Of a stretch of 64,000 nucleotides of DNA, positions 1-11,728 are shown piece by piece. This DNA comes from Elusimicrobiota bacterium. Lineage in GTDB: Bacteria > Elusimicrobiota > Elusimicrobia > UBA1565. The stretch spans positions 32,001 through 96,000 of the forward strand of contig JBDRPD010000003.1 of the NCBI GenBank assembly GCA_043827405.1. Reading direction: 5' to 3'. The notes under the pieces were generated by a model that searched no databases, was not told where the DNA came from, and was given only the letters and a program-made list of their open reading frames with translations. Position 1 is the first letter of the stretch; each line of letters begins with the position of its first letter. Position numbers and translations under genes: made by a program.

Positions 1-1316
1 GCCGGGCCGGGAAAGAAGGGCTTCTGAAGCTCGCCGTCCGGCAATGGGGCGGCCATGAGGAGTCTTAGTTCCTCTCCCCGCTCGAGGATTAGTTCATCGG
101 CCTGCAGAACTTCGAGATCCTTGGACAGCAGCGATGTTTCAGCCCGCAATAGATCGTCTTTTTCCGCTTCGTAGCGCTGGGCAAGCTTTTTTGTCGTGTC
201 GAGGAATTCGCGCGCGTCCTCCCGGGAACCGCTGAGAACCTTTTTGTTCTCGTGGCTGAGCCAGAGCTCCGTATAAGCGGTTGCGACCCGTTGGGCGAGC
301 AGTTCAGAGGCGCGGTCGAGATCCGCCCGGGCCGCGCGCACGTCGATAGCCGCTTCCCGCAGCGCGCTGCGTTCGGGGCGGCCGATAAAGCCTTTGAGCA
401 GGGATTGCGTTACGGATAGATCAAGCTTGGATCTCGTGCGCGGATTGAGGGTGAAGGTGGAGCTGACGTCGTCGATCTCTTTGGCCAGCGAGGAGTCGAG
501 CGCGAGGCCGGTGCCGGTGGCGAAGCGCTTGGCCAGCCCGATGCCGGCGCTGTCGGTGATGGTGCGCGGGGTTTGGAAAAACACGGCGGGCGGCGTTTTG
601 GCATCGAGGCGTTGGATGGCGGCGCTGATCGACGTGTCGTAAGCGCCGAGCAGCGCCAGTTGCCGGGCCAGCGCCGCCTGATGCGCGGCGCGGACGGGGG
701 CAAGTTCGGGATTGTTTTTCAGCGCGCTGTGCACCGCGGTCAGCACCGGAAAGGGGGGGCGGTGTACGCTGGGGACCGACAAGGCGTCCGCGGTGCCGGG
801 AATCGCCAGCAGCAGCGCGCCGAGCAGGGGCAGCAGCTTGGCCCGGATATTCGCCATGGCGGAGCGCATCGTTTTCCTTTCCGCGCCGGAGACGCCGGCG
901 TAGATGGTCTTGAGCAGCTTGATAATGCCGGGCCAGAAGGCGCGTATTTTTTTGCGCCCGGCCGGCGTGATCTCGATCAGGGTTATCCGGCGGTCTGCGC
1001 GGGTGCGCAGACGGCGTACCAGTCCGGCCTTCTCCAGCGTATCGGTCAAGCCGGTCACGTTGGCCTGGGAGACCAGCAGCTGCATGCTGACCGCGCTCAT
1101 CGGCAGCGGTCTCTCCTGGCCGTCGAGCAGGAACAGGATGCCCATGGCCGGCGGCGTCAGGCCATGCGGCCGGAGCTGCTTGGAGAGGGTGCGAAAGAGC
1201 ATGTCGAAGGTGCGGATGATGCCGATATGCGTCTCGATGAGTTCGGGATCGAATCCGGGATAGTTCTCCGCCATGTGGGCGAAGCGCTCGCGCATGGGAT
1301 CTTTCGGCTGCGGCAT
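1..1316 (-). CDS. MarR-family regulator fused in frame to a TolC/outer-membrane efflux protein (3' end beyond the window edge)
   Basis: Manual translation from ATG 1316 has no stop down to base 1. N-terminal part is MarR-like: LRPHGLTPPAMGILFLL...ANVTGLTDTLEKAGLVRRLRTRADRRITLIEITPAG. It is followed by a signal-like stretch AKLLPLLGALLLAIPGTADA and OEP-type segments ALKNNPEL, LSVTQSLLKG, VATAYTEL, DLLRAE. Not in the ORF track because no stop lies in the window. Confidence 0.85.
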   Translation of the reverse strand, partial: MPQPKDPMRERFAHMAENYPGFDPELIETHIGIIRTFDMLFRTLSKQLRPHGLTPPAMGILFLLDGQERPLPMSAVSMQLLVSQANVTGLTDTLEKAGLVRRLRTRADRRITLIEITPAGRKKIRAFWPGIIKLLKTIYAGVSGAERKTMRSAMANIRAKLLPLLGALLLAIPGTADALSVPSVHRPPFPVLTAVHSALKNNPELAPVRAAHQAALARQLALLGAYDTSISAAIQRLDAKTPPAVFFQTPRTITDSAGIGLAKRFATGTGLALDSSLAKEIDDVSSTFTLNPRTRSKLDLSVTQSLLKGFIGRPERSALREAAIDVRAARADLDRASELLAQRVATAYTELWLSHENKKVLSGSREDAREFLDTTKKLAQRYEAEKDDLLRAETSLLSKDLEVLQADELILERGEELRLLMAAPLPDGELQKPFFPGP

Positions 1317-1483: not shown

Positions 1484-4400
1484 ATGAAACATCTACGCAC
1501 AGCGCTTACCGTCTTCATTTCCGTCAGCCTGATCACTTTGTCGCCCGGACTCGGCGCCTATCGCGCCTGTGCCAGCATGATCGGCGCGGCGACGGCGGTC
1601 AAAGGTTCCGCCGCCGGCGTCAACGGCGCGGTCGGCGCGGCCGTCGGCAATCCCGCTCTCATCCGCTCCCTGAGCGTGACTCCCGTCAACCTGAACCTCA
1701 ACTCCGGCGTTCTTCCCGGTATGAGTTCGCTGCCGGGTTCCGTTATCGCGCCGCATGCGGGTGTCCGGCTTGCGCCCAGCCTGATGGTTCAGACGCAGAT
1801 TTCAGGCGCGGCGGCGGCGCTTCCGCTCAAGGCGGCGCTTTCCGTCAAGACGAGCCGTGCGCCGCCGGCGGCAAAAAAGACGCAGTCTCTCCTCAAGAGC
1901 CTCAGCCTTGCGCTGCCCAAGTTCGGCGAGATGTCCGGCGCCGAGGCCAAGTCCTCCGCCCAGACCGACTTCCTGAGCCGTATCGGCAGCTATAAGTCCC
2001 GCGGCGAGTCCGCCGCGGTCGCGCCCAAGGCCTCGGTCTTTCAGAGCCTGCGGCGTGGAATGCGGCTGAGCGCCGCCAAGAAGTCCTCCAAGAAAGAGGA
2101 TATGCCGGACTACGGGCGCGATGATGATCGCAGTTCGGAACCGGACTATAATGATCTGGACGAGCTGGGCAATGAACGCCGCCGGCAGGACCCCGGTCCG
2201 GACGATGGCTACGACGAGTTCGGCGGCGACGGCGGCCGCGGCAACAGCGATCTTTTCGGCTTCATGCCCTTGGTGTTCGCGGGCTCGAGCCTGTTTATCG
2301 CGCCGCTCTTGGGCGCGCTTTCGCTCCCGGTGATGATCGGCACCTATCTCGCCGTCGTCCTGCCGTCTTTGGTGCTCCATGAGATGGGCCATGCCTGGGC
2401 GGCCGACAAGCTCGGCGACCCCAGCGCCCGCCTCGCCGGACGCATGAGCTTCAGCCCCCGGAACCTCTGGAATCACCTGAATATGCCGCTGAGCTTCAAC
2501 CTTTTCGGCCGGCAAATCTCCATCCCGCTGGGCATGAGCTTCGTGCTGCCGCTTGGGATGATGACGATCTCAATGCTGACTGTGGGCGTGCCGATCCTGT
2601 TCGGCGGCGCGCGGCCGGTTCAGGTCAATTCCGGCAATCTCGCGAGCCCCGCGCAGAACCGGACGGCCGCCAAGGGCATGGGACTTGTCGCCTTGGCCGG
2701 CCCGGCGGTTAACTTCGGCATCGCCGCGCTCGCCGGCCTGACGCATTTCGGTCTCATGGCCGCGGGCGTGGGCGGCGCGGTGCTGCCGGTTCTGGCGGCT
2801 TCGGTCTTCCTTAATGTGCTGCTCGGAGTCTTCAACCTGCTGCCGTTCGCGCCGCTTGACGGGCATCATGTCGGGCGCTCGTTTCTCGCCGACACCCTCG
2901 GCCGGCCGGACTGGGCCGAGAAGGCTTACGGCAGCGCCGAAGGCTATATGAGTCCGGCCGCCCGCGCGGTCAATATCTACGGGCTGATCGGAACGGTTCT
3001 GTTCATGCTGGGGCCGGTGCTGGGCGCGGTGCATTTGATCTCGAGCGTCTTCCTCGCCGGCTCATCGTGGCTGGTGAGCTCGGGCGCGCTGGCGGCGTCG
3101 GGCGTTCTCCCGGCGGTCGGCGCGCTGGGTCTCATGGTCGGCCAAATCCTCGGCGGCGGCAGCACCATGGGCGGCAATTCGGACGGCGCCAAGTCGGAGC
3201 CGGCCGTTGAGATTCCGGACGCCCGCGAGCTTATCGTACGCTTTGACGGCGCGAAGTCGAAGCTTTCGGCGGACCATCATCTCAGCCTGGTGGACGTCGG
3301 CGCCCAGGGCGGCATGCGGCTCTATCAGGCGACCGTGCAGGGGATGATGGCGCAGCTGCACCTGTCGGGTCTGGACATGAGCCTGCTCCACCGCTTCGGC
3401 GCCACTCCGATCGCCACCTATAAAAGGATAAACGCGGCGACCCTGCGCATGCCGGCCTCGCAGAAGGACGCCATGAAGCAGGCGCTCACAGCGCGCGGCT
3501 TCAAGGTCTACGAGAACGAGCGGCGCGAGATCGTGCGCCCGATCGAGGACGATCCGAACGTGCAGATGCCGCAGGCCGCGCCGCAGCGGGGAGCGGTTTC
3601 TATGAAGGAGACGCTCGAAATTTCCACTATGGACAAGGTCCATGAAGCGGCACGCCAGCGGTGGGGTTCGCCGCAGCGCAGCGACTGGCGCGCGCGGCTG
3701 CTGAACTTCCTGCTCACCAAGGTGCTGCGCGGCAGCATCGCGCAGCCCAATATCGGCGTCATCGATACCGGGGTGGAGAAAGACCATCCGCTGATCGCCC
3801 CCGGCCTTAAAGCCGCCAAGGACGTCGATCCCAACGGCAGCGGCGCCGACAGGAACGGGCATGGGACCTGGGTGACGTCTATGGTGTTCTGGTTCGCCCC
3901 CTGGCTCAAGAATATCACGCATTATAAAATCTTCGGCGATAACGGCGGGGCGACCCTCGACGACGTGCTCAAGGGTCTGACCATGGCCGGCAACGACAAG
4001 AACATCGTCATCTCCAACTCCTGGGGCTCCGACGACGGCGACCCGAACAGCCCGGACTCCATGCTGGTCAAGAAGTTGGCGGAAGAGGGGCATATCATGG
4101 TATTCGCCGCCGGGAACGCCGGCTATCGGGGCGCCAATACCATCGGCTCTCCCGCGATATCGCATTACGTGGACGCCAAGACCGGCGCGCCCCGGGTGAT
4201 CGCGATCGCCTCTACCGACCGCAATAAGGCGGTTTCGAGCTTCTCCTCCAAGGGGCCGGGCAGCCGCAAGACGCGCAATATCCCGGATTATCCGCGCAAA
4301 CCCAACGCCGCCGAGCAGGGCGACAATACCGAGGGCGCCTGGCTGGGCGGCAGGACCCGGGCCATTTCCGGAACCTCGATGTCGACCCCGAAGTTCGCGG

Positions 4401-4705
4401 GGACGATTGCCATGCTGGCGCAGCTCTTCGGCGTGACCGAGGTCGGCGAGGACCTCGACCGGATCGTCAACGCCGTTATGGGCACTCTCGTGAACCCGAA
4501 AAATGAGACGCCGACGGCCATCGGGGACGGCTTCAGCGCCGCTTACGCCGCCTATGAGCGGCTTAATGCGACCGGCTTCATGCCGGTTAAGCGCGGGCTG
4601 GTCCGGCGCCTGCTTATTTGGCTGCTGGACCGCGCTCAGGTCGGCGGCGAGGCGCCAAAAGCGCCGCCCGCTCCCGCGGCAGACGAAAGAAACGTAGAAA
4701 AATAA
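1484..4705 (+). CDS. Site-2 protease (M50) / subtilisin-like (S8) fusion protein with N-terminal signal-like sequence
   Basis: SD AGGAG before ATG 1484. M50 motifs HEMGH (2378-2392) and NLLPFAPLDG (2834-2863) lie among hydrophobic segments. S8 triad: GVIDTG (D at 3764), NGHGT (H at 3860), GTSMSTP (S at 4376); oxyanion motif AAGNAG. Confidence 0.9.
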   Translation: MKHLRTALTVFISVSLITLSPGLGAYRACASMIGAATAVKGSAAGVNGAVGAAVGNPALIRSLSVTPVNLNLNSGVLPGMSSLPGSVIAPHAGVRLAPSLMVQTQISGAAAALPLKAALSVKTSRAPPAAKKTQSLLKSLSLALPKFGEMSGAEAKSSAQTDFLSRIGSYKSRGESAAVAPKASVFQSLRRGMRLSAAKKSSKKEDMPDYGRDDDRSSEPDYNDLDELGNERRRQDPGPDDGYDEFGGDGGRGNSDLFGFMPLVFAGSSLFIAPLLGALSLPVMIGTYLAVVLPSLVLHEMGHAWAADKLGDPSARLAGRMSFSPRNLWNHLNMPLSFNLFGRQISIPLGMSFVLPLGMMTISMLTVGVPILFGGARPVQVNSGNLASPAQNRTAAKGMGLVALAGPAVNFGIAALAGLTHFGLMAAGVGGAVLPVLAASVFLNVLLGVFNLLPFAPLDGHHVGRSFLADTLGRPDWAEKAYGSAEGYMSPAARAVNIYGLIGTVLFMLGPVLGAVHLISSVFLAGSSWLVSSGALAASGVLPAVGALGLMVGQILGGGSTMGGNSDGAKSEPAVEIPDARELIVRFDGAKSKLSADHHLSLVDVGAQGGMRLYQATVQGMMAQLHLSGLDMSLLHRFGATPIATYKRINAATLRMPASQKDAMKQALTARGFKVYENERREIVRPIEDDPNVQMPQAAPQRGAVSMKETLEISTMDKVHEAARQRWGSPQRSDWRARLLNFLLTKVLRGSIAQPNIGVIDTGVEKDHPLIAPGLKAAKDVDPNGSGADRNGHGTWVTSMVFWFAPWLKNITHYKIFGDNGGATLDDVLKGLTMAGNDKNIVISNSWGSDDGDPNSPDSMLVKKLAEEGHIMVFAAGNAGYRGANTIGSPAISHYVDAKTGAPRVIAIASTDRNKAVSSFSSKGPGSRKTRNIPDYPRKPNAAEQGDNTEGAWLGGRTRAISGTSMSTPKFAGTIAMLAQLFGVTEVGEDLDRIVNAVMGTLVNPKNETPTAIGDGFSAAYAAYERLNATGFMPVKRGLVRRLLIWLLDRAQVGGEAPKAPPAPAADERNVEK

Positions 4706-4718
4706 TAAGAAATATTTA

Positions 4719-4758
4719 TAGGCCCTAAGACCCTAAGAGACCTGGGCCTCTTGTCCCT
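4719..4758. promoter_or_regulatory. Pair of 16-bp TAGGnCnnnnGnCCTA-like palindromes, 24 bp apart
   Basis: TAGGCCCTAAGACCCT at 4719-4734 and TGGGCCTCTTGTCCCT at 4743-4758. Confidence 0.5.
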
Positions 4759-4806
4759 TTAATGAAAACGGCATACGGCTACACTGGTGGTGGACGGGAA
4801 TCGGCA

Positions 4807-5205
4807 ATGAAGACCGCAGCGAAAACTTCGATACTCCTGGTGGACGACGACGATAATTTCCGCGAAACCATGTCGGACGCGATGGCTTTGCGGGACGTCG
4901 AAATCCAGGGAGCGACCAACGGGGCGCAGGCGCGTACGAGCCTGCAGTCTCATACGCCTTCCTTGATACTGCTGGATGTTCAGCTGCCGGACACCCAGGG
5001 CTTCGCTCTCTGCCGCGATATCAAGCAGGACGAGCGTTATAAAAACGTGCCGGTCGTGCTGTTGTCGGCGAAGTATACGGAGCCGGCGGATCGAGTCGAA
5101 GGCATGCTTTGCGGCGCCGACGCATATCTCTCCAAGCCCATTAAGTTGGATGCGCTTTTCGACGAGATGGAGTACCTTCTTGACAAGGCGGGTCGAGCCT
5201 GCTAA
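4807..5205 (+). CDS. Single-domain response regulator (CheY-like receiver)
   Basis: ILLVDDD, LILLDVQLPD, VVLLSA, GADAYLSKP; alternative start at 4762. Confidence 0.9.
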   Translation: MKTAAKTSILLVDDDDNFRETMSDAMALRDVEIQGATNGAQARTSLQSHTPSLILLDVQLPDTQGFALCRDIKQDERYKNVPVVLLSAKYTEPADRVEGMLCGADAYLSKPIKLDALFDEMEYLLDKAGRAC

Positions 5206-5269: not shown

Positions 5270-5605
5270 ATGTCCGCCGAGATTCAGCTAACTGACGATA
5301 CTTTCGAGAAGGAAGTTCTGCAGAGCAGTGAACCCGTTTTAGTCGATTTTTGGGCGCCCTGGTGCGGCCCTTGCCGCATGATCGCGCCGATCGTTGAGGA
5401 GCTGGCCGAGGAGTATGCGGGGAAGGCCAAGATCGCCAAGCTCAATACGGACGAGAGCCCCAATACGGCTACGAAGTTCAATATTTCGGCCATTCCGACC
5501 ATGCTGTTCTTCAAGGGTGGGGAGGTCGAAAAGCAGGTGGTCGGCGTTCATTCGAAGGCCGACATAAAAAAGATTCTTGACGAGCTTCTCGGGACGAACA
5601 CTTAG
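5270..5605 (+). CDS. trxA: Thioredoxin
   Basis: VDFWAPWCGPC active site, cis-Pro loop AIPT, SD GGAGG. Confidence 0.97.
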   Translation: MSAEIQLTDDTFEKEVLQSSEPVLVDFWAPWCGPCRMIAPIVEELAEEYAGKAKIAKLNTDESPNTATKFNISAIPTMLFFKGGEVEKQVVGVHSKADIKKILDELLGTNT

Positions 5606-6119
5606 CGTCCCGGCGGCGCTTTTCGCGCTGCTCCTGGCGGCCGGCTGTACGCCTCCGGGGGATGGGTCCGGTGGAGATGCCGGGCTCGGAGAACCCGCGC
5701 CGGAGTTTGCGCTCAAGGACCTGACGGGGCGGATTGTCCGGCTCGCGGATTTTAAGGGGAAAGTCGTTCTTATCGACTTTTGGGCGACGTACTGTCTCCC
5801 CTGCCGGGACGCCATACCCGAACTGCAGGCGCTCCATGATAAGCATCAGGCGGAGGGCTTCGCGGTCATCGGGATCAGCGTGGACGCTTATGCCGGACAT
5901 GTGCCGGACTTCGTTCGCGAGCTGGGTGTGAAGTACCCTGTCGTTTTGGATCCGGAGCAGGAGACGGCGAGATCGTTCGGCTTCAGCCAGCTGCCGACGA
6001 CCTTCCTCGTGGACCGCTCCGGCAGGATACGCCGGAAATGGCTCGGATACGATCCCGCGATCGCCGAGGAAATTCACCGTGAAGTCGCAGCAGCGCTGCA
6101 AGATAAAGGAACCTCCTAG
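5577..6119 (+). CDS. TlpA/ResA-like thiol-disulfide oxidoreductase, lipoprotein
   Basis: Lipobox LAAGC; APEFAL, GKVVLIDFWATYCLPC, LPTTFLVDRSG; start codon uncertain. Confidence 0.85.
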   Translation: MTSFSGRTLSVPAALFALLLAAGCTPPGDGSGGDAGLGEPAPEFALKDLTGRIVRLADFKGKVVLIDFWATYCLPCRDAIPELQALHDKHQAEGFAVIGISVDAYAGHVPDFVRELGVKYPVVLDPEQETARSFGFSQLPTTFLVDRSGRIRRKWLGYDPAIAEEIHREVAAALQDKGTS

Positions 6120-6147
6120 CCGCACCTGCTAACCCTTGTCTCCTGTT

Positions 6148-8808
6148 ATGACCGCACAACAGCGTATATACCTGGTGGACGCGCACGCGTATCTCCACCG
6201 GGCGTATCACGCCCTGTACGGCTCCCAGCTGCGCAGTTCCGCGGGCGAGCCGGTGTGGGCGCTGTTCGGCTTCGCCAAGATGCTGCTGGCGATCATTAAG
6301 AAGGAAACGCCGGACTATCTGGCCGTGTGCTTCGACTTGCCCGAGCCGACTTTCCGCCACAAGAAATTCAAGGAATACAAGGCGACCCGCAAGGAGCTCG
6401 ATGAGGATTTGATCGTCCAGCTGGGGCAGGCCGAGAACATGGTCCGGACCATGGGGCTCACTACCGTCGCGCAGCCCGGCTATGAGGCGGACGACCTGCT
6501 CGCCACGCTGGCGCGCCGGGCGATAGAGGACGGCCTGGACGCCGTGATCGTGAGCGGCGACAAGGATGCGCTGCAGCTGATCGGCGAGCGGGTCAAAGTT
6601 TACAACGAAGCGAAAGAAATCTTCTACGATGCCGAAGGGGTCCGCGAAAAGCTCAAGGTCGCGCCGGAGCAGGTCGTCGACTATTTGGCGATTATCGGCG
6701 ACACCTCGGACAATGTCCCGGGGGTGCCGGGGATCGGCCCGGTAGGCGCCGTCAAGCTGCTCAACCACTTCGGCACTCTGGCCGAGGCGATCGAGGCGGC
6801 AAAGCAGGGGCATAAGGACATCAAGCCCAAGGCGGCGGAGAGCCTGGTCAAATTCGCTGAGGCCGCGCGCCTGAGCCAGGACCTTATCCGCCTCGACGCC
6901 CAAGCGCCGATTAAGGTTAAGCCGCGCGACTGCTCGCCGGAAGTTGAGCCGACGCCCGAGCTCATCGAGCTGTTCTCCCGTCTTGGTTTCAAGAGTATTC
7001 TTAAAAGCCTGGGGGCGGTTCCGGCTTCCGCGGAGCCGCCCGCGCCGTCCGTCGCGGGCGCCGGCAGCGCCGCCGCGCCGGCCGCGATCCTCTTTAAGCC
7101 GGTCCCGCCCCGGGAGATGGCGGCGGCGGCCCAGACGGCGCCCATGGTGGCGGTGGCGGTGGAGCATGGAGCGCAGCCCGACCTGCTGACCACGGCGAAC
7201 CCGCAGGTGGGCTTGGCGCTGCCCGACGGCCGGACCGCGGTATTTATTGATGAGGACTTCGTGAAGCATCGCGGCGCCCTGGCCAAGATTTTCGGCGCCG
7301 GCGACGTGCAGAAGTTCGGCCACGATCTCAAGGCGGTGATTCGCGGCCTGGACGGCAGCGGATTGGAGCTGGCACCTCCGCTGGCCGATACCATGCTCGC
7401 GGCCTACTGTCTCGATCCGTCGCGCCCCGAGTATGCGCTGGAGGCGGTGCTCGCCGAGGCAGGTTTGGATCTGCCGCCGGATGAGGAGCGTTCCCAGGCG
7501 CTGGCGCGCCGCGCCGCCGCGGTATGGGCGCTGCATAAGCGCTTTGACCCGGAGCTGCGCCGGACGGGGCTCGAGAAGCTGTATCGCGAATTCGAACTGC
7601 CGCTGCTGCGCGTGCTCGCCGCTATGGAAATCGAGGGGGTCGCGATCGACCGCGCTTATCTGCAGCGGCTCGCCAAGGAGTTCGCGGGCGAGATCGCGCG
7701 GATCAAGCGCGAGGTGGATAAGCTGGCGGGCGTGGAGATCAACCTCGGTTCTCCCAAGCAGCTCGTTGAGCTGCTCGTCGATAAGCTCAAGCTGCCCGTT
7801 ATCCACAAGACCAAGAAGGGCGGCGTCTCGACCGACGAGACCGCGCTGCGGGCCTGGTCCGAACAGCATCCGATCCCCGGGAAGATCATCGAGTACCGCG
7901 AGCTGACCAAGCTCAAGTCCACCTATATCGACGCGCTGCTGGAGAAGGCCGATCCCGAGACGGATCGCGTCCACTCCCATTTCAATCAGGCCGGGACGGC
8001 GACCGGCCGGCTTTCGAGCCTCGACCCCAATCTGCAGAATATCCCGGTGCGGACCGCTCTCGGGCGCCGTATCCGCCGCGGCTTCATCGCCGGCAAGGGG
8101 CGGGCGCTGCTGGCCGCCGACTACTCGCAGATCGATCTGCGGGTCCTGGCCCATTTGTCGGCGGACCCGATGCTGTGCGGGGCGTTTCGCGGCGGGGAGG
8201 ACGTCCACCTGAAGACCGCCAGCGAGGTGTTCGGCCTGGCGCCGGAGGACGTGAGTCCTGAGATGCGCCGCCGCGCCAAGGCGGTAAACTTCGGCATCGT
8301 CTACGGCCAGAGCGCGCATGGCCTGAGCGGCGAGCTCGGTATCGCGCATGGGCAGGCGAAAGAATACATCGACGGCTATTTCCAGCGCTACAGCGGCGTG
8401 GCCGCCTGGCTCAAGAGCAACCTGGATGCCGCCCGCCGGGACGGCTGCGTTAAGACCCTGCTCGGCCGCATTCGCTACCTGCCCGACATCAACGCGAAGA
8501 ATTTCCGTGAGCGCGCGTTCAATGAACGGGTTGCCGGCAATACTCCCATCCAGGGCACGTCCGCCGACATCATCAAGGCGGCGATGATTAACATCCATAC
8601 TAAGATGGCGGAGTCGGGCAAATGGAAGGCCCGACTGGTGCTGCAGGTGCATGATGAGCTGATCTTCGAGCTGCCCCAGAGCGAGGTCGTGAAGTTCGGC
8701 GCTTGGGTGCGCCGGGAAATGGAGACCGCGATCAAGCTGGACGTGCCGGTCGTTGTTGATGTGAAATCCGGACCAAACTGGAACGAGATGAAGGCGGTCA
8801 AGCTATGA
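6148..8808 (+). CDS. polA: DNA polymerase I
   Basis: 5'-3' exonuclease motifs (YEADD, GDTSDNVPGVPGIG); polymerase motifs TGRLSS.PNLQNIP, ADYSQI, AKAVNFGIVYG, QVHDEL. Confidence 0.98.
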   Translation: MTAQQRIYLVDAHAYLHRAYHALYGSQLRSSAGEPVWALFGFAKMLLAIIKKETPDYLAVCFDLPEPTFRHKKFKEYKATRKELDEDLIVQLGQAENMVRTMGLTTVAQPGYEADDLLATLARRAIEDGLDAVIVSGDKDALQLIGERVKVYNEAKEIFYDAEGVREKLKVAPEQVVDYLAIIGDTSDNVPGVPGIGPVGAVKLLNHFGTLAEAIEAAKQGHKDIKPKAAESLVKFAEAARLSQDLIRLDAQAPIKVKPRDCSPEVEPTPELIELFSRLGFKSILKSLGAVPASAEPPAPSVAGAGSAAAPAAILFKPVPPREMAAAAQTAPMVAVAVEHGAQPDLLTTANPQVGLALPDGRTAVFIDEDFVKHRGALAKIFGAGDVQKFGHDLKAVIRGLDGSGLELAPPLADTMLAAYCLDPSRPEYALEAVLAEAGLDLPPDEERSQALARRAAAVWALHKRFDPELRRTGLEKLYREFELPLLRVLAAMEIEGVAIDRAYLQRLAKEFAGEIARIKREVDKLAGVEINLGSPKQLVELLVDKLKLPVIHKTKKGGVSTDETALRAWSEQHPIPGKIIEYRELTKLKSTYIDALLEKADPETDRVHSHFNQAGTATGRLSSLDPNLQNIPVRTALGRRIRRGFIAGKGRALLAADYSQIDLRVLAHLSADPMLCGAFRGGEDVHLKTASEVFGLAPEDVSPEMRRRAKAVNFGIVYGQSAHGLSGELGIAHGQAKEYIDGYFQRYSGVAAWLKSNLDAARRDGCVKTLLGRIRYLPDINAKNFRERAFNERVAGNTPIQGTSADIIKAAMINIHTKMAESGKWKARLVLQVHDELIFELPQSEVVKFGAWVRREMETAIKLDVPVVVDVKSGPNWNEMKAVKL

Positions 8809-9668
8809 CGCGGCGCTTCGCGCACGGCCCGCTGGATTTTCGGGCGATGTCTCCGGTCATCAAGGGGCTGATCATCGCCAATGTGGTCGTTTTTCTTCTG
8901 CTGGAGCTGACCAGCCGCGCCCACTTTTCCCAGTTTTTTGGACTGGTCCCCTACCGGGTGCTGCACCAAGGGCTTCTCTGGCAGCCGTTCACCTACCTTT
9001 TTCTGCACGGCGGCTTCTTCCATCTGTTCTTCAATGTTTTCGCCCTGTGGATGTTCGGTATGCCCGTCGAAGCGGAATGGGGCCCGCGGGAGTTCCTGAA
9101 GTTCTACTTCATCTGCGGCGTCGGCGCGGGGGTGCTCAACGTGATCCTTACCCCGCATTCGGTGGCGCCGATTATCGGCGCATCCGGCGCCGTCTACGGC
9201 CTGCTGATCGCTTTCGCCATGCTGTTTCCGGATGCGGTGATCTACCTCTACTTTCTCTTCCCTATCAAGGCGAAGCATATGGCGGTACTCTTCGTGGTTC
9301 TGGAGTTTATGGCCGCGACGTCGACCAATAATACTACGGTCGCCCGCTTCGCGCACCTGGGCGGGGCGCTGATCGCCTACGTCTATATCCGCTGGTGGAA
9401 CTGGGCGCGCATGTACGGAACCGCCCTGCTGCGGGAGATCTTTTCGCGCAGCGGCTATAAGGGCAAGGCCGGTGCGCGGCGCAAGACCAGCGCCCGAATC
9501 GCCCCGCCCCGCCGGAAGCCGGAGCCCGCGATGAATTACGTCGACGAGATCGCGGAGGTCGACCGTATTCTCGACAAAATTTCAGATCACGGCGAGGAAT
9601 CGCTGACGCCGCAAGAGCGTGAGACGCTCCTGCGTCAGGCCAAGAAGAAGCCGGAGGGGCATGCCTAA
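8805..9668 (+). CDS. Rhomboid family intramembrane serine protease
   Basis: WQPFTYLFLH, HLFFN, IGASGAVYG, AHLGG; C-terminal VDRILDKIS.G.ESLT tail. Confidence 0.92.
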   Translation: MTRRFAHGPLDFRAMSPVIKGLIIANVVVFLLLELTSRAHFSQFFGLVPYRVLHQGLLWQPFTYLFLHGGFFHLFFNVFALWMFGMPVEAEWGPREFLKFYFICGVGAGVLNVILTPHSVAPIIGASGAVYGLLIAFAMLFPDAVIYLYFLFPIKAKHMAVLFVVLEFMAATSTNNTTVARFAHLGGALIAYVYIRWWNWARMYGTALLREIFSRSGYKGKAGARRKTSARIAPPRRKPEPAMNYVDEIAEVDRILDKISDHGEESLTPQERETLLRQAKKKPEGHA

Positions 9669-10293
9669 GCGCGCGCGGACATTGACGGTGGGTCTGACGG
9701 GCGGCATCGGCTCCGGCAAGAGCGAGGCGCTTAAGTGCTTCGCGCGGGCCGGCGCGGAAACCCTCTCTTTGGATGATATCGCGCATGAGCTTTCCCGGAA
9801 GGGACGCCCGCTGCACCGGGCGATTGTGCGGACGTTCGGCCGCGGCGCGCTCGACCGCTCCGGCGCCGTTGACCGTGAGGCTCTCGGGACGCGGGTCTTC
9901 GCCGACGCCCGGCAGCGCCGCCGCCTCGAGCGCGCCGCGCACCCGGTTATCCGCCGCGAGATGCGGCGGCGTCTGGCGGCCGCGCGCCGTGCCGTGACCG
10001 TGGTGGATGTGCCGCTGCTGTTCGAGGGCGGCCTGCAGGGGAATTTCGACGTAACGGTCATCGTGACCGCGAGCCGTGAGCGCCGCATCGAGCGTGTGCG
10101 CCGCCGGAGCGGGCTGAGCCGCAGTGCCGTTGTACGACGGATGCGCGCGCAGCTGCCGGAGCGGACCAAGCGCCGTCTGGCCGACGTCAGGATTCCCAAC
10201 GACGGGAGCCTGCGCGAGCTGGGATGTGCCGTGCGCGAATACCAAAAGGCCTTACGGCTGATCGCAGGAGGCAACAATGACTCATTCTACTAA
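9661..10293 (+). CDS. coaE: Dephospho-CoA kinase
   Basis: [13 protein letters not shown]-loop, HPVIR, DVPLLFE; follows polA. Confidence 0.95.
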
Positions 10294-11728
10294 TCCCACC
10301 GAACCGCAGAAGCATAGCGCCGGCAGCAGGAACAAAAAGCCCGACGCCGCGCCGCCGCCGCGCCCGGAAGGCCCGGGCGGCAATAACAAGAAGCCCGACG
10401 CCGCGCCGCCGCCGCGCCCGGACGGCCAGGGGAGCGGCAGCAGCAAGGGGGAGCCCGGCAGGACGCTGGATGTCGCGGCCATCAGCAAGATGAAGATCGC
10501 CGACTTGATGAAGCTCGGCGAAGAGATGAGCTTGGAGGGCATCTCGGGACTGCGCAAGCAGGACCTGATCGTCAAGATATTGGAAGGCCACGCCAAGCGG
10601 CATGGCCAGATATTCGACGAGGGAGTGCTGGAGATCCTTCCCGACGGTTTCGGATTCCTGCGGTCGATCGACTACAACTACCTGCCCGGCCCCGACGATA
10701 TCTATGTGTCGCCGTCCCAGATCAAGAAGTTCGGCCTGCGCAAGGGCGACACCGTGGCGGGCAATGTGCGCGGCCCCAAAGAGGGGGAGCGCTTCTTTGC
10801 CTTGCTGCAGGTGGTCAGCGTCAACGGCGTGGCGATCGAGAAGCGGGGGAACCGCATCTTCTTCGACAACCTGACGCCGCTGCACCCCAACGAGAAATAT
10901 GTGCTCGAGACCGTGCAGCAGGAGTCGACGACGCGCTGTCTCGATCTGATCGCGCCGGTGGGCAAGGGGCAGCGCTCGCTGATTGTGGCCGCGCCCAAGA
11001 CCGGCAAGACGATTATGCTGCAAAAGATCGCCAACGCCATCGCCAAGAACTATCCCGAGGTCAAGCTCCACGTGCTGCTGATCGACGAGCGGCCGGAAGA
11101 GGTGACCGACATGCAGCGCAGCGTCAAGGGCGAGGTCGTGGCCTCGACCTTCGACGAGCCGGCCGACCGGCATGTGCAGGTCGCGGAGATGGTGATTGAG
11201 AAGTCCAAGCGCCTGGTGGAGATGGGCAAGGATGTGGTCATTCTGCTGGACTCCATCACCCGCCTGGCCCGGGCCTACAACACCATCGCGCCGTCCTCCG
11301 GACGCGTGCTCTCGGGCGGACTCGAGGCGACTTCGCTGCAGCGGCCCAAGCGCTTCCTCGGCGCGGCGCGCAAGATCGAGGAGGGCGGCAGCCTCACCAT
11401 CATCGCCACGGCGCTGGTCGACACCGGCAGCCGCATGGATGAGGTCATATTCGAAGAGTTTAAGGGCACCGGCAACTCGGAGGTGGTGCTGGACCGCAAG
11501 CTCGCCGACCGGCGGCAGTTCCCGTCCATCGAGATCAACCGTTCGGGCACCCGCAAGGAGGAACTGCTGCTGACCGAGGACGAGATCAACAAGATCTACA
11601 TCCTGCGCAAGGTCCTGGCGCCGCTGGCTTCGGTGGACGCGATGCAGCTGCTCAACGACAAGCTGCTGGCCACCAAGTCCAATAAGGATTTCCTGAAATC
11701 CATGGAAATTTCGTCCATGGATGGCTAG
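10277..11728 (+). CDS. rho: Transcription termination factor Rho
   Basis: [54 protein letters not shown]. Confidence 0.98.
10331..10427 (+). repeat. Two-copy 54-bp-period in-frame duplication in the rho N-terminal extension
   Basis: aacaa(a/g)aagcccgacgccgcgccgccgccgcgcccgga(a/c)ggcc at 10331 and 10385, encoding [12 protein letters not shown](E/D)G twice. Confidence 0.9.

Follow-up and report, generated by a model that had tools for sequence, protein, structure and literature searches.

An Elusimicrobiota gene joins an acidic peptide cassette, a site-2 protease and a subtilase in one chain, possibly as a self-processing precursor

Subtilases of the kexin type cut pre-pro-peptide precursors such as yeast alpha-factor and prohormones; in borosins and BURP-domain peptides the precursor is fused to the enzyme that matures it, and in the cyanobactin system (PatA/PatG/PatE) release falls to a subtilase. 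Site-2 proteases (S2Ps) mature peptide pheromones from signal peptides, Eep/RseP being an example, and S2Ps without accessory domains, groups II and IV of Kinch et al. as summarised in PMC10202637, are described there as having no additional domains. The structure of RseP and site-1 autoproteolysis are treated in the relevant parts of PMC9401612 and PMC10556640. Here, we analysed a gene in a 64,000-nucleotide stretch of DNA from an Elusimicrobiota bacterium (the window; assembly GCA_043827405.1, contig JBDRPD010000003.1, positions 32,001 to 96,000), whose product combines an acidic peptide cassette, an M50 site-2 protease domain and an S8 subtilase domain. We put forward, with slightly less than even confidence, the prediction that this protein is a modular precursor that matures its own subtilase and excises the acidic peptide, with the M50 domain as an optional cutter of membrane stubs.

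The gene is a single open frame of 1073 amino acids (aa), with a ribosome-binding-like GAGGAG 5′ of its ATG and a start that agrees with the N-termini of its homologues. Pfam recognises both Peptidase_M50 (E 2e-10) and Peptidase_S8 (E 2e-29) in it. A search with residues 250–1073, which scored 7996 candidates, returned 120 matches, 119 of which constitute one family, and both Pfam domains are present in 107 of the 120. The catalytic residues are intact: H299, E300 and H303 of HEMGH (299–303) are conserved in 109 of the 110 family rows having a residue there, D459 of NLLPFAPLDG (451–460) in 111 of 112 rows, and D761, H793, N878 and S965 in all 119 proteins. An earlier note, made from the sequence alone, had described an intact M50 and an intact S8 domain on one polypeptide, and in this it was right. 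The fusion also occurs in a complete chromosome record (L091); a DNA run from another study (X2) covers every one of 30 bins, and its long pieces, nearly identical to the gene, extend over most of it; a read piece from X4 spanning 3035–3185 shows no difference. The one RNA run touched only trxA-like sequence and has no bearing either way on expression of the gene. The fusion is therefore confirmed as real and conserved. A literature search by listings, with supplements outside its scope, found no printed account of the M50–S8 fusion or of the cassette, and the architecture is apparently undescribed.

The acidic stretch that the earlier note took for an Asp-rich linker does exist, but its conservation indicates that it is a module rather than a linker. 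It occupies residues 207–258, with conserved MPD, D-[ED]-L-G-N and GPDD elements and a final LF, and is found in 76 of the 96 near-full-length fusions, as one copy in 60, two in 15 and three in one, the multiple copies being in tandem. LF or a close variant ends 88 of the 93 cassette copies. Because its third codon positions vary, selection appears to act on the peptide; the same synonymous variation led us to reject an RNA element at this site, Rfam giving only tRNAs, in four loci. At least three K/R lie within the ten residues upstream of 75 of 87 cassette copies, compared to 162 of 8528 linker windows (1.9%). The cassette core is also kept in 10 of the 13 orthologues that have no M50 domain.

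The cassette has free-standing relatives with the same ends. Its profile, searched against 1.84 billion representatives, gave 49 matches: members of the family, small precursors with a signal, tiny proteins made up of the cassette alone and, as a false match, a 3064-aa unrelated repeat protein (P0123); a match on a viral contig (L166) was discarded as a chance one, antisense to a terminase-like gene. With follow-up searches included, the cassette-only group consists of 22 signal-less proteins of 59–138 aa, all ending in Phe and with 0–1 K/R before the MP start, so that the basic cluster is present only where the cassette is embedded; many of the 22 are closely related, and the figure is not a count of independent cases. 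One of them (P0152) is labelled Patescibacteria, and the rest have no taxon on record. The other short relatives, 16 signal-bearing proteins, end in LF-stop (6), end at the cassette otherwise (3) or have tails or are fragments (7), and most of them carry 3–6 K/R upstream of the cassette; the signal peptides of cassette precursors were judged by eye and hydropathy. The NSDLF end of the window's cassette recurs in P0145, P0150, P0152 and P0160. Free precursors built as signal peptide, linker, basic cluster, cassette and stop were found in genomes G005 (two copies), G034, G381 and G424, and one with a short tail in G427. In G005 and G034, the cassette matched only in such a separate precursor and not in the fusion, while in G381 a minimal cassette gene fills the slot upstream of the receiver gene that follows the fusion elsewhere. 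With a signal peptide, a pro-region and repeated peptide units behind basic sites, these proteins have the make-up of prohormone-type precursors.

Some further cassette proteins may be recorded here. In P0138, a 223-aa protein of the window's own genome (G000 C107:21653-22321; L119:7654-8322, minus strand), an ordinary signal peptide is followed by a small domain with Cys residues and, at the C-terminus, by a cassette ending in PLF-stop; P0130 likewise joins an ordinary signal peptide, a Cys-paired small domain and the cassette. No Pfam family matches P0138, P0145 or P0152, and ESM Atlas gave nothing usable for P0138 and, for P0145, a 67-aa cluster at 0.90 with low recognition, which is a lead only. 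The metagenome scan yielded a single tiny-gene context, returned twice; the gene of P0152 lies at L165:5923-6168. The longer alternative starts of P0140, P0154, P0155, P0159 and P0164 share upstream sequence, which hints at a conserved DNA or RNA element; Rfam gives no match for it. In L155 (G131 C77), a class-level relative, a cassette-like segment lies between two hydrophobic segments in a 3623-aa frame.

The subtilase half resembles a subtilisin still joined to its propeptide. The AlphaFold model (mean pLDDT, the predicted local distance difference test score, 77) was built from 96 of the 119 family members, near-full-length ones picked for coverage, and its residues 579–1025 match unautoprocessed pro-subtilisin E (3whi) with Z 37.3 and a root-mean-square deviation of 2.5 over 332 aligned residues; Tk-SP (3afg) gives Z 36.7. 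The segment between the two proteases, which had been noted earlier as propeptide-like, thus has the fold of an S8A inhibitory propeptide by structural match to 3whi, with no match to Pfam I9; the catalytic triad and oxyanion Asn of S8A are those conserved throughout the family. In the junction N-x-x-R-x-I-(I/V)-x-P, N678 is kept in 118, R681 in 113, I683 in 118 and P686 in 119 of the 119 proteins. Acidic loops near the predicted cleft are similarly conserved (D826 in 119, D827 in 118, D850 in 99, D853 in 111 and D858 in 118), which would suit basic cleavage sites. A conserved Pro also stands two residues after the predicted site of self-cleavage, and another two residues after the start of the cassette. 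The S8 domain is no closer to human site-1 protease (S1P; E 5e-5) than to Bacillus subtilases (SubTY, E 5e-13), and the S1P fold gives Z 35.2 compared to 37.3; judged by sequence kinship, it is not an S1P. The preference of S1P is for R-x-(L/I/V)-Z, read by an acidic S4 pocket, with Ile and Val excluded at P1, according to PMC12067269; the junction R-x-I-(I/V) and an acidic loop are present in our protein, but the loop is offset from D312/D315 of S1P and the P1 residue is one that S1P excludes.

The M50 domain is matched more weakly than the S8 domain. Its nearest solved chain is MjS2P (3b4r, E 2e-5), and the model matches RseP (9j83) with Z 9.8 and MjS2P with Z 8.7. It has the HExxH and LDG zinc ligands of M50 proteases on separate membrane helices; Pfam finds neither the PDZ domain of S2P group I, the AGP–NLLP helix loop being only 8 residues long, nor the CBS domain of group III (MjS2P, SpoIVFB). 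It is related to a stand-alone 214-aa M50 of the same genome, which also encodes an RseP-sized M50, other M50 fusions and an M50-less paralogue with a C-terminal hydrophobic segment. The hydrophobic segment behind the M50 domain was considered as a recurring internal signal and gave no further match in the genome.

The modules are lost independently of each other. The genome scan covered the best 80 of 249 loci, and among the 57 named loci M50 is present in 42 (in one of them a frameshift splits it, and in another it is truncated where the contig begins), absent from 13 and beyond the reach of two that are cut before it. On a pro+S8 tree of 55 sequences, from which five truncated or broken-domain loci were left out and to which two M50-less sequences were added, the M50 label needs five changes, all forced by starred branches; the tree is unrooted, and gain and loss are indistinguishable on it. 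Versions with M50 alone are known from G300, G318 and G412, and the S8 of G020 is decayed. Where the two halves are fused, their pairwise identities correlate (Spearman 0.85 over 37 proteins, kin not being independent). Frequent loss of either half is not expected of an obligate two-step machine.

The N-terminus places the protein in a larger class. An iterated profile of the first 75 residues, in which P21 is kept in 108 and G22 in 110 of 112 rows of the fusion family, retrieves 26 proteins of this genome at E ≤0.001 and 30 at 0.05, so that about 26 unrelated proteins of up to 5460 aa (L001–L020) share the leader. According to Pfam, the cargo of the 25 others includes MFS (five), ABC, MscS, SDF, ClpB-type ATPases (two), PPK2, alpha-amylases (two), M48, Rce1, M50 (two), S8 (two) and VWA domains; an ATP-grasp domain also occurs among the leader cargo. 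The fusion thus belongs to a class in which different domains are shuffled behind a common leader. In about 13 of 30 leader proteins, judged by eye, a helix-helix-(F/L)DG element lies some 140–190 residues in. Two other leader–M50 fusions (G000 C30:5668-9153 and C50:196650-198767) have altered motifs, HESAH/HETAH and WLDG/WSDG, and behind these they share an acidic helical domain that carries a CxYDYWC motif. Of 26 leader genes, 23 have a GGNCCW-type DNA core in the 220 nucleotides upstream, compared to 313 of 969 other genes whose upstream space is open; this core is possibly a shared operator of leader genes; the strict core is not present upstream of the M50–S8 gene. Behind the leader of the fusion, pLDDT is below 50 for residues 35–133 and 170–222.

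Features of the M50–S8 gene and its downstream neighbour (window positions)
Feature	Position	Strand	Description and basis
Whole gene	1484..4705	+	1073 aa; leader, low-complexity pro-region, acidic cassette, M50, propeptide, S8, short tail
Signal-like leader	1484..1576	+	Basic n-region, hydrophobic stretch, SPG turn, AxA-type end; family conservation, cleavage inferred
Low-complexity region	1577..2077	+	Ala/Ser/Pro-rich; predicted disordered save two helices, residues 134–166
Basic cluster	2078..2101	+	KKSSKKED, directly 5′ of cassette; candidate processing site; K/R enrichment
Acidic peptide cassette	2102..2257	+	52 aa, MPD...DELGN...GPDD...NSDLF; 17 D/E, 6 K/R; homology to free-standing small proteins
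TMa	2252..2317	+	Variable hydrophobic segment between cassette and HExxH helix, membrane-crossing or interfacial; low model confidence
M50 site-2 protease domain	2318..3076	+	No PDZ/CBS; HEMGH 2378–2392, NLLPFAPLDG 2834–2863; Pfam, structure matches
Extra hydrophobic segment	3077..3151	+	Consensus GVQLASAxLPAVAALGLAVG, shorter in some members; family alignment
Subtilisin-type propeptide	3215..3541	+	Junction N-x-x-R-x-I-(I/V)-x-P at 3515–3541, predicted self-cleavage region; structure, conservation
S8 catalytic domain	3581..4573	+	D761 (3764), H793 (3860), N878 (4115), S965 (4376); Pfam, motifs, structure
Receiver-only response regulator	4762..5205	+	Conserved neighbour, housekeeping block; Pfam, locus comparison

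If the protein is a precursor that processes itself, its leader would direct the polypeptide to the membrane, and the pro-region, the cassette and S8 would come to lie on one and the same side of it. The S8 domain would then process itself at R-x-I-(I/V)-x-P, after residue 684 (a position set by analogy with subtilisin), and in doing so detach from its M50 anchor; the pro-subtilisin fold agrees with the earlier suggestion that either domain might mature its partner or set it free. The acidic cleft of S8 may make one cut between the basic cluster and the Met/Thr-Pro that follows it and another behind the C-terminal Leu-Phe, and the freed peptide would resemble the direct product of the tiny genes. 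Since the free forms begin with MP or close to it and have F as their last residue, and the embedded ones add the basic cluster and keep LF, the mature unit is likely the same peptide, excised. The M50 domain, in turn, might cut TMa, cleaved leaders or similar stubs of its own and of sibling leader-bearing proteins. That the peptide is a signal or an effector acting via its free C-terminal Phe is a guess.

Several observations speak against such self-processing. Ile and Val are poor P1 residues for subtilisins, and one or the other is the predicted P1 in 117 of the 119 proteins; autoprocessing may therefore be slow or shifted, or may not occur. No single P4–P1 motif is common to the three cut sites that we propose, and 20 of the 96 fusions have no recognisable cassette. 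Nine genomes of the order have the protease and no cassette match (several of them being contig fragments), and five (G381, G412, G421, G424 and G427) have the cassette but no protease match; the cassette-only genomes, together with fused and free copies in this genome, mean that there is no strict complementarity. No protease lies beside the tiny gene at L165, the single context seen. Finally, the M50 loops rich in K/R and the long runs without charge agree with a six-helix M50 that would leave S8 in the cytoplasm, and the same leader carries cytoplasm-type cargo.

The alternative that survives best is that the protein is a general subtilase tethered to the membrane, with the cassette as a regulatory, metal-binding or interaction tag and the M50 domain as an anchor or a passenger with housekeeping substrates of its own. 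The shuffling of many unrelated cargo domains behind the leader is compatible with this, as are the independent loss of M50 and S8, the presence of other leader proteins in the slot 5′ of the receiver in other genomes, and the composition of the cassette, which is D/G/P-rich and predicted to be disordered save for one short hairpin. A passive tag, however, would need neither a basic cluster that is confined to precursors nor the same LF end in tandem copies and at free C-termini, and stand-alone signal-peptide precursors would be equally superfluous to it. We consider this alternative possible but doubtful.

Another alternative concerns the side of the membrane. In the 120 residues that directly precede the propeptide, none of the 13 M50-less orthologues shows a transmembrane-like stretch, and because these forms lack a membrane segment in between, pro-region, cassette and S8 should lie on one face in either topology. 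We slightly favour the outer face, because the leader is signal-like, cassette precursors have ordinary signal peptides and the M50-less forms point the same way. The inner face is favoured by the K/R-rich loops of M50, by uncharged runs of 35–49 residues before HExxH in 77 of 96 proteins, and by the cytoplasm-type cargo of the leader. In this alternative, the leader would anchor the protein and not be a normal export signal, and pro-region, cassette and S8 would face the cytoplasm, either the cell's own or, if the leader class served effector delivery, that of a host or prey cell. The leader cargo again has a say here, with MFS proteins (five), an ABC transporter, MscS, ClpB-type ATPases (two), PPK2 and ATP-grasp. 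The first MFS helix normally has its N-terminus in the cytoplasm, and in four of the five no extra hydrophobic run comes ahead of it; no transmembrane segment accompanies the PPK2 domain behind its leader; a canonical M50 whose two ends are inside agrees with the positive-inside counts; and a signal peptide is absent from the tiny cassette proteins. For giant proteins of Omnitrophota that bear peptidase domains, a role in predation has been proposed (10.1101/2023.11.21.568195). What stands in the way of a cytoplasmic S8 is the pairing of the cassette with ordinary signal peptides and Cys-paired small domains in P0138 and P0130, and, for delivery, that no delivery machine turned up, although no search was aimed at one. 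On balance, we regard this reading of the leader as unlikely.

The earlier note had raised the possibility of a self-contained S1P/S2P cascade. In such a scheme, a separate anti-sigma or transcription factor bound to the membrane would be cut by S8 at site 1 and by M50 at site 2. Both active sites are indeed conserved, the two domains are co-inherited where fused, the junction and the acidic loop resemble the preference and S4 pocket reported for S1P in PMC12067269, and the genome has 13 matches to sigma-70 region 2, several of the size of extracytoplasmic-function factors. Against this, the recurring neighbour clusters of the 57 loci, judged by sequence clustering and BLAST aimed at candidates, offered no conspicuous sigma factor, anti-sigma factor or membrane regulator as a conserved substrate, though one may be encoded elsewhere in the genome; a separate RseP-sized M50 exists in the genome; M50 was dispensable in at least five places on the S8 tree and is absent from 13 of the 57 loci; S8 is no nearer to human S1P than to Bacillus subtilases; and the propeptide sits between both enzymes, so that maturation would part S8 from M50. 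The cascade is thus poorly compatible with our data, and we hold it to be very unlikely. An artefact of assembly or annotation, at which the origin of the sequence in a metagenome-assembled genome could hint, has a practically negligible chance, given that the architecture is common to most matches and to a complete chromosome record and that independent reads run over the gene.

The fusion was found in one order of Elusimicrobiota and in a single relative outside it, within the 7996 candidates and the 80 loci covered. The labelled members of the 119-member family are all Elusimicrobia/Elusimicrobiota or simply 'bacterium'. The pro+S8 clade is found in 39 of the 401 genomes of the phylum. Of these, 38 belong to the window's order; the remaining one is from a different family of the same class, and its copy is an M50–S8 fusion too. 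In 101 genomes of the order, counted by hand, 63 have the protease, 59 the cassette and 54 both. The receiver gene lies downstream in 52 of the 57 loci, and trxA–polA in 30. The earlier note had pointed to this receiver-only regulator; the adjacency holds, but a partner role does not. The receiver, as part of a receiver–trxA–polA block, occurs in 100 of the 401 phylum genomes, compared to 39 for the subtilase, and in 20 genomes (all but one with no match to the subtilase clade) it follows, among the matches listed, smc-type housekeeping genes or other leader proteins. Being wider in distribution and standing behind other genes elsewhere, it was rejected as a partner and serves as a landmark. 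The palindromes that were said to bracket the gene did not bear scrutiny, as neither flank has an inverted repeat of 12 nucleotides or more; the only intergenic motif found is of the GGNCCW type, at about 4720–4760 in front of the receiver gene, and a longer pattern is not enriched genome-wide (366 versus 356 in shuffled sequence). Further downstream, at 5270–11728, lies a conserved series of housekeeping genes, named by likeness (trxA by Pfam) as trxA, TlpA-like, polA, rhomboid-like, coaE and rho. On the other side, the window encodes at 3–1316 (minus strand) a MarR regulator fused in-frame to a TolC/OEP outer-membrane efflux domain, which is found upstream in 4 of the 57 loci too. In 30 of the 57 loci (L067:846-5714 and 29 others), the gene directly upstream is a leader-bearing fusion of an M48 protease with MFS, often shorter.

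In its widest form, our interpretation is that a prohormone-like polyprotein packs a peptide shared with small proteins of Patescibacteria together with both proteases that would release it, the subtilase acting outside the membrane and the S2P within it; these proteases may also strip the shared leader from an exported or host-delivered class of proteins, which would amount to an undescribed route of secretion and processing in the order. This extension is speculative, and we would not bet on it. S8 domains that might cleave giant proteins have been suggested in two preprints on Omnitrophota giant proteins (10.1101/2023.11.21.568195 among them), the first of which makes no mention of M50. If self-processing holds, the gene would be a bacterial peptide precursor fused to its processing enzymes, it would define a family of small acidic peptides with a free C-terminal Phe in Elusimicrobiota and at least one Patescibacteria genome, and it would give a first function to the accessory-free subgroup of S2Ps, described in PMC10202637 as not extensively characterised. 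Even if peptide release fails as a model, what remains is a conserved, order-wide and undescribed architecture and a handle on the shared leader.

How, then, does the protein compare with known systems? With S1P (MBTPS1) and S2P (MBTPS2), and with DegS/RseP, the comparison is of families: S8 and M50 are those of the eukaryotic pair, and the likeness to S1P further includes an acidic loop behind the SxG motif and, at the site of self-cleavage, an Arg in the predicted P4 position. Unlike these pairs, however, our protein is one chain rather than two, with no PDZ domain, no conserved regulator as substrate and an optional M50, and its S8 domain lies outside the sequence neighbourhood of S1P and has no C-terminal anchor. 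Pro-subtilisin E (3whi) and Tk-SP (3afg) share with it the propeptide and catalytic fold, the triad and the oxyanion Asn; here, by contrast, a membrane M50 and a peptide cassette precede them, the motifs HGxW (a Trp after the catalytic His motif) and SNSWG are present, the cleft is strongly acidic and Ile or Val takes the predicted P1. The accessory-free S2Ps have the same HExxH and LDG ligands on separate helices and the same absence of PDZ and CBS, but here the M50 domain is embedded in a leader-bearing polyprotein. Borosins, BURP-domain peptides and the PatA/PatG/PatE system are similar in having a tandem core peptide with an enzyme in cis or subtilases for release; they differ in that our protein contains an M50 domain and an unrelated core sequence, and that, for an enzyme-fused ribosomally synthesised and post-translationally modified peptide, Pfam finds only proteases in the chain and no modifying enzyme is among the recurring neighbours of the 57 loci. 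The precursors cut by kexin, and pheromone maturation by Eep/RseP, resemble our protein in the signal peptide, the pro-region, the one to three repeated units behind basic clusters, and the subtilase and S2P as candidate processing enzymes. In contrast to kexin-cut precursors, the proteases are here part of the peptide's own chain, the S8 domain is subtilisin-like, and the peptide is acidic and 50–60 aa long. In its kind of working, the protein is thus most like a pre-pro-peptide precursor that carries its convertases in cis.

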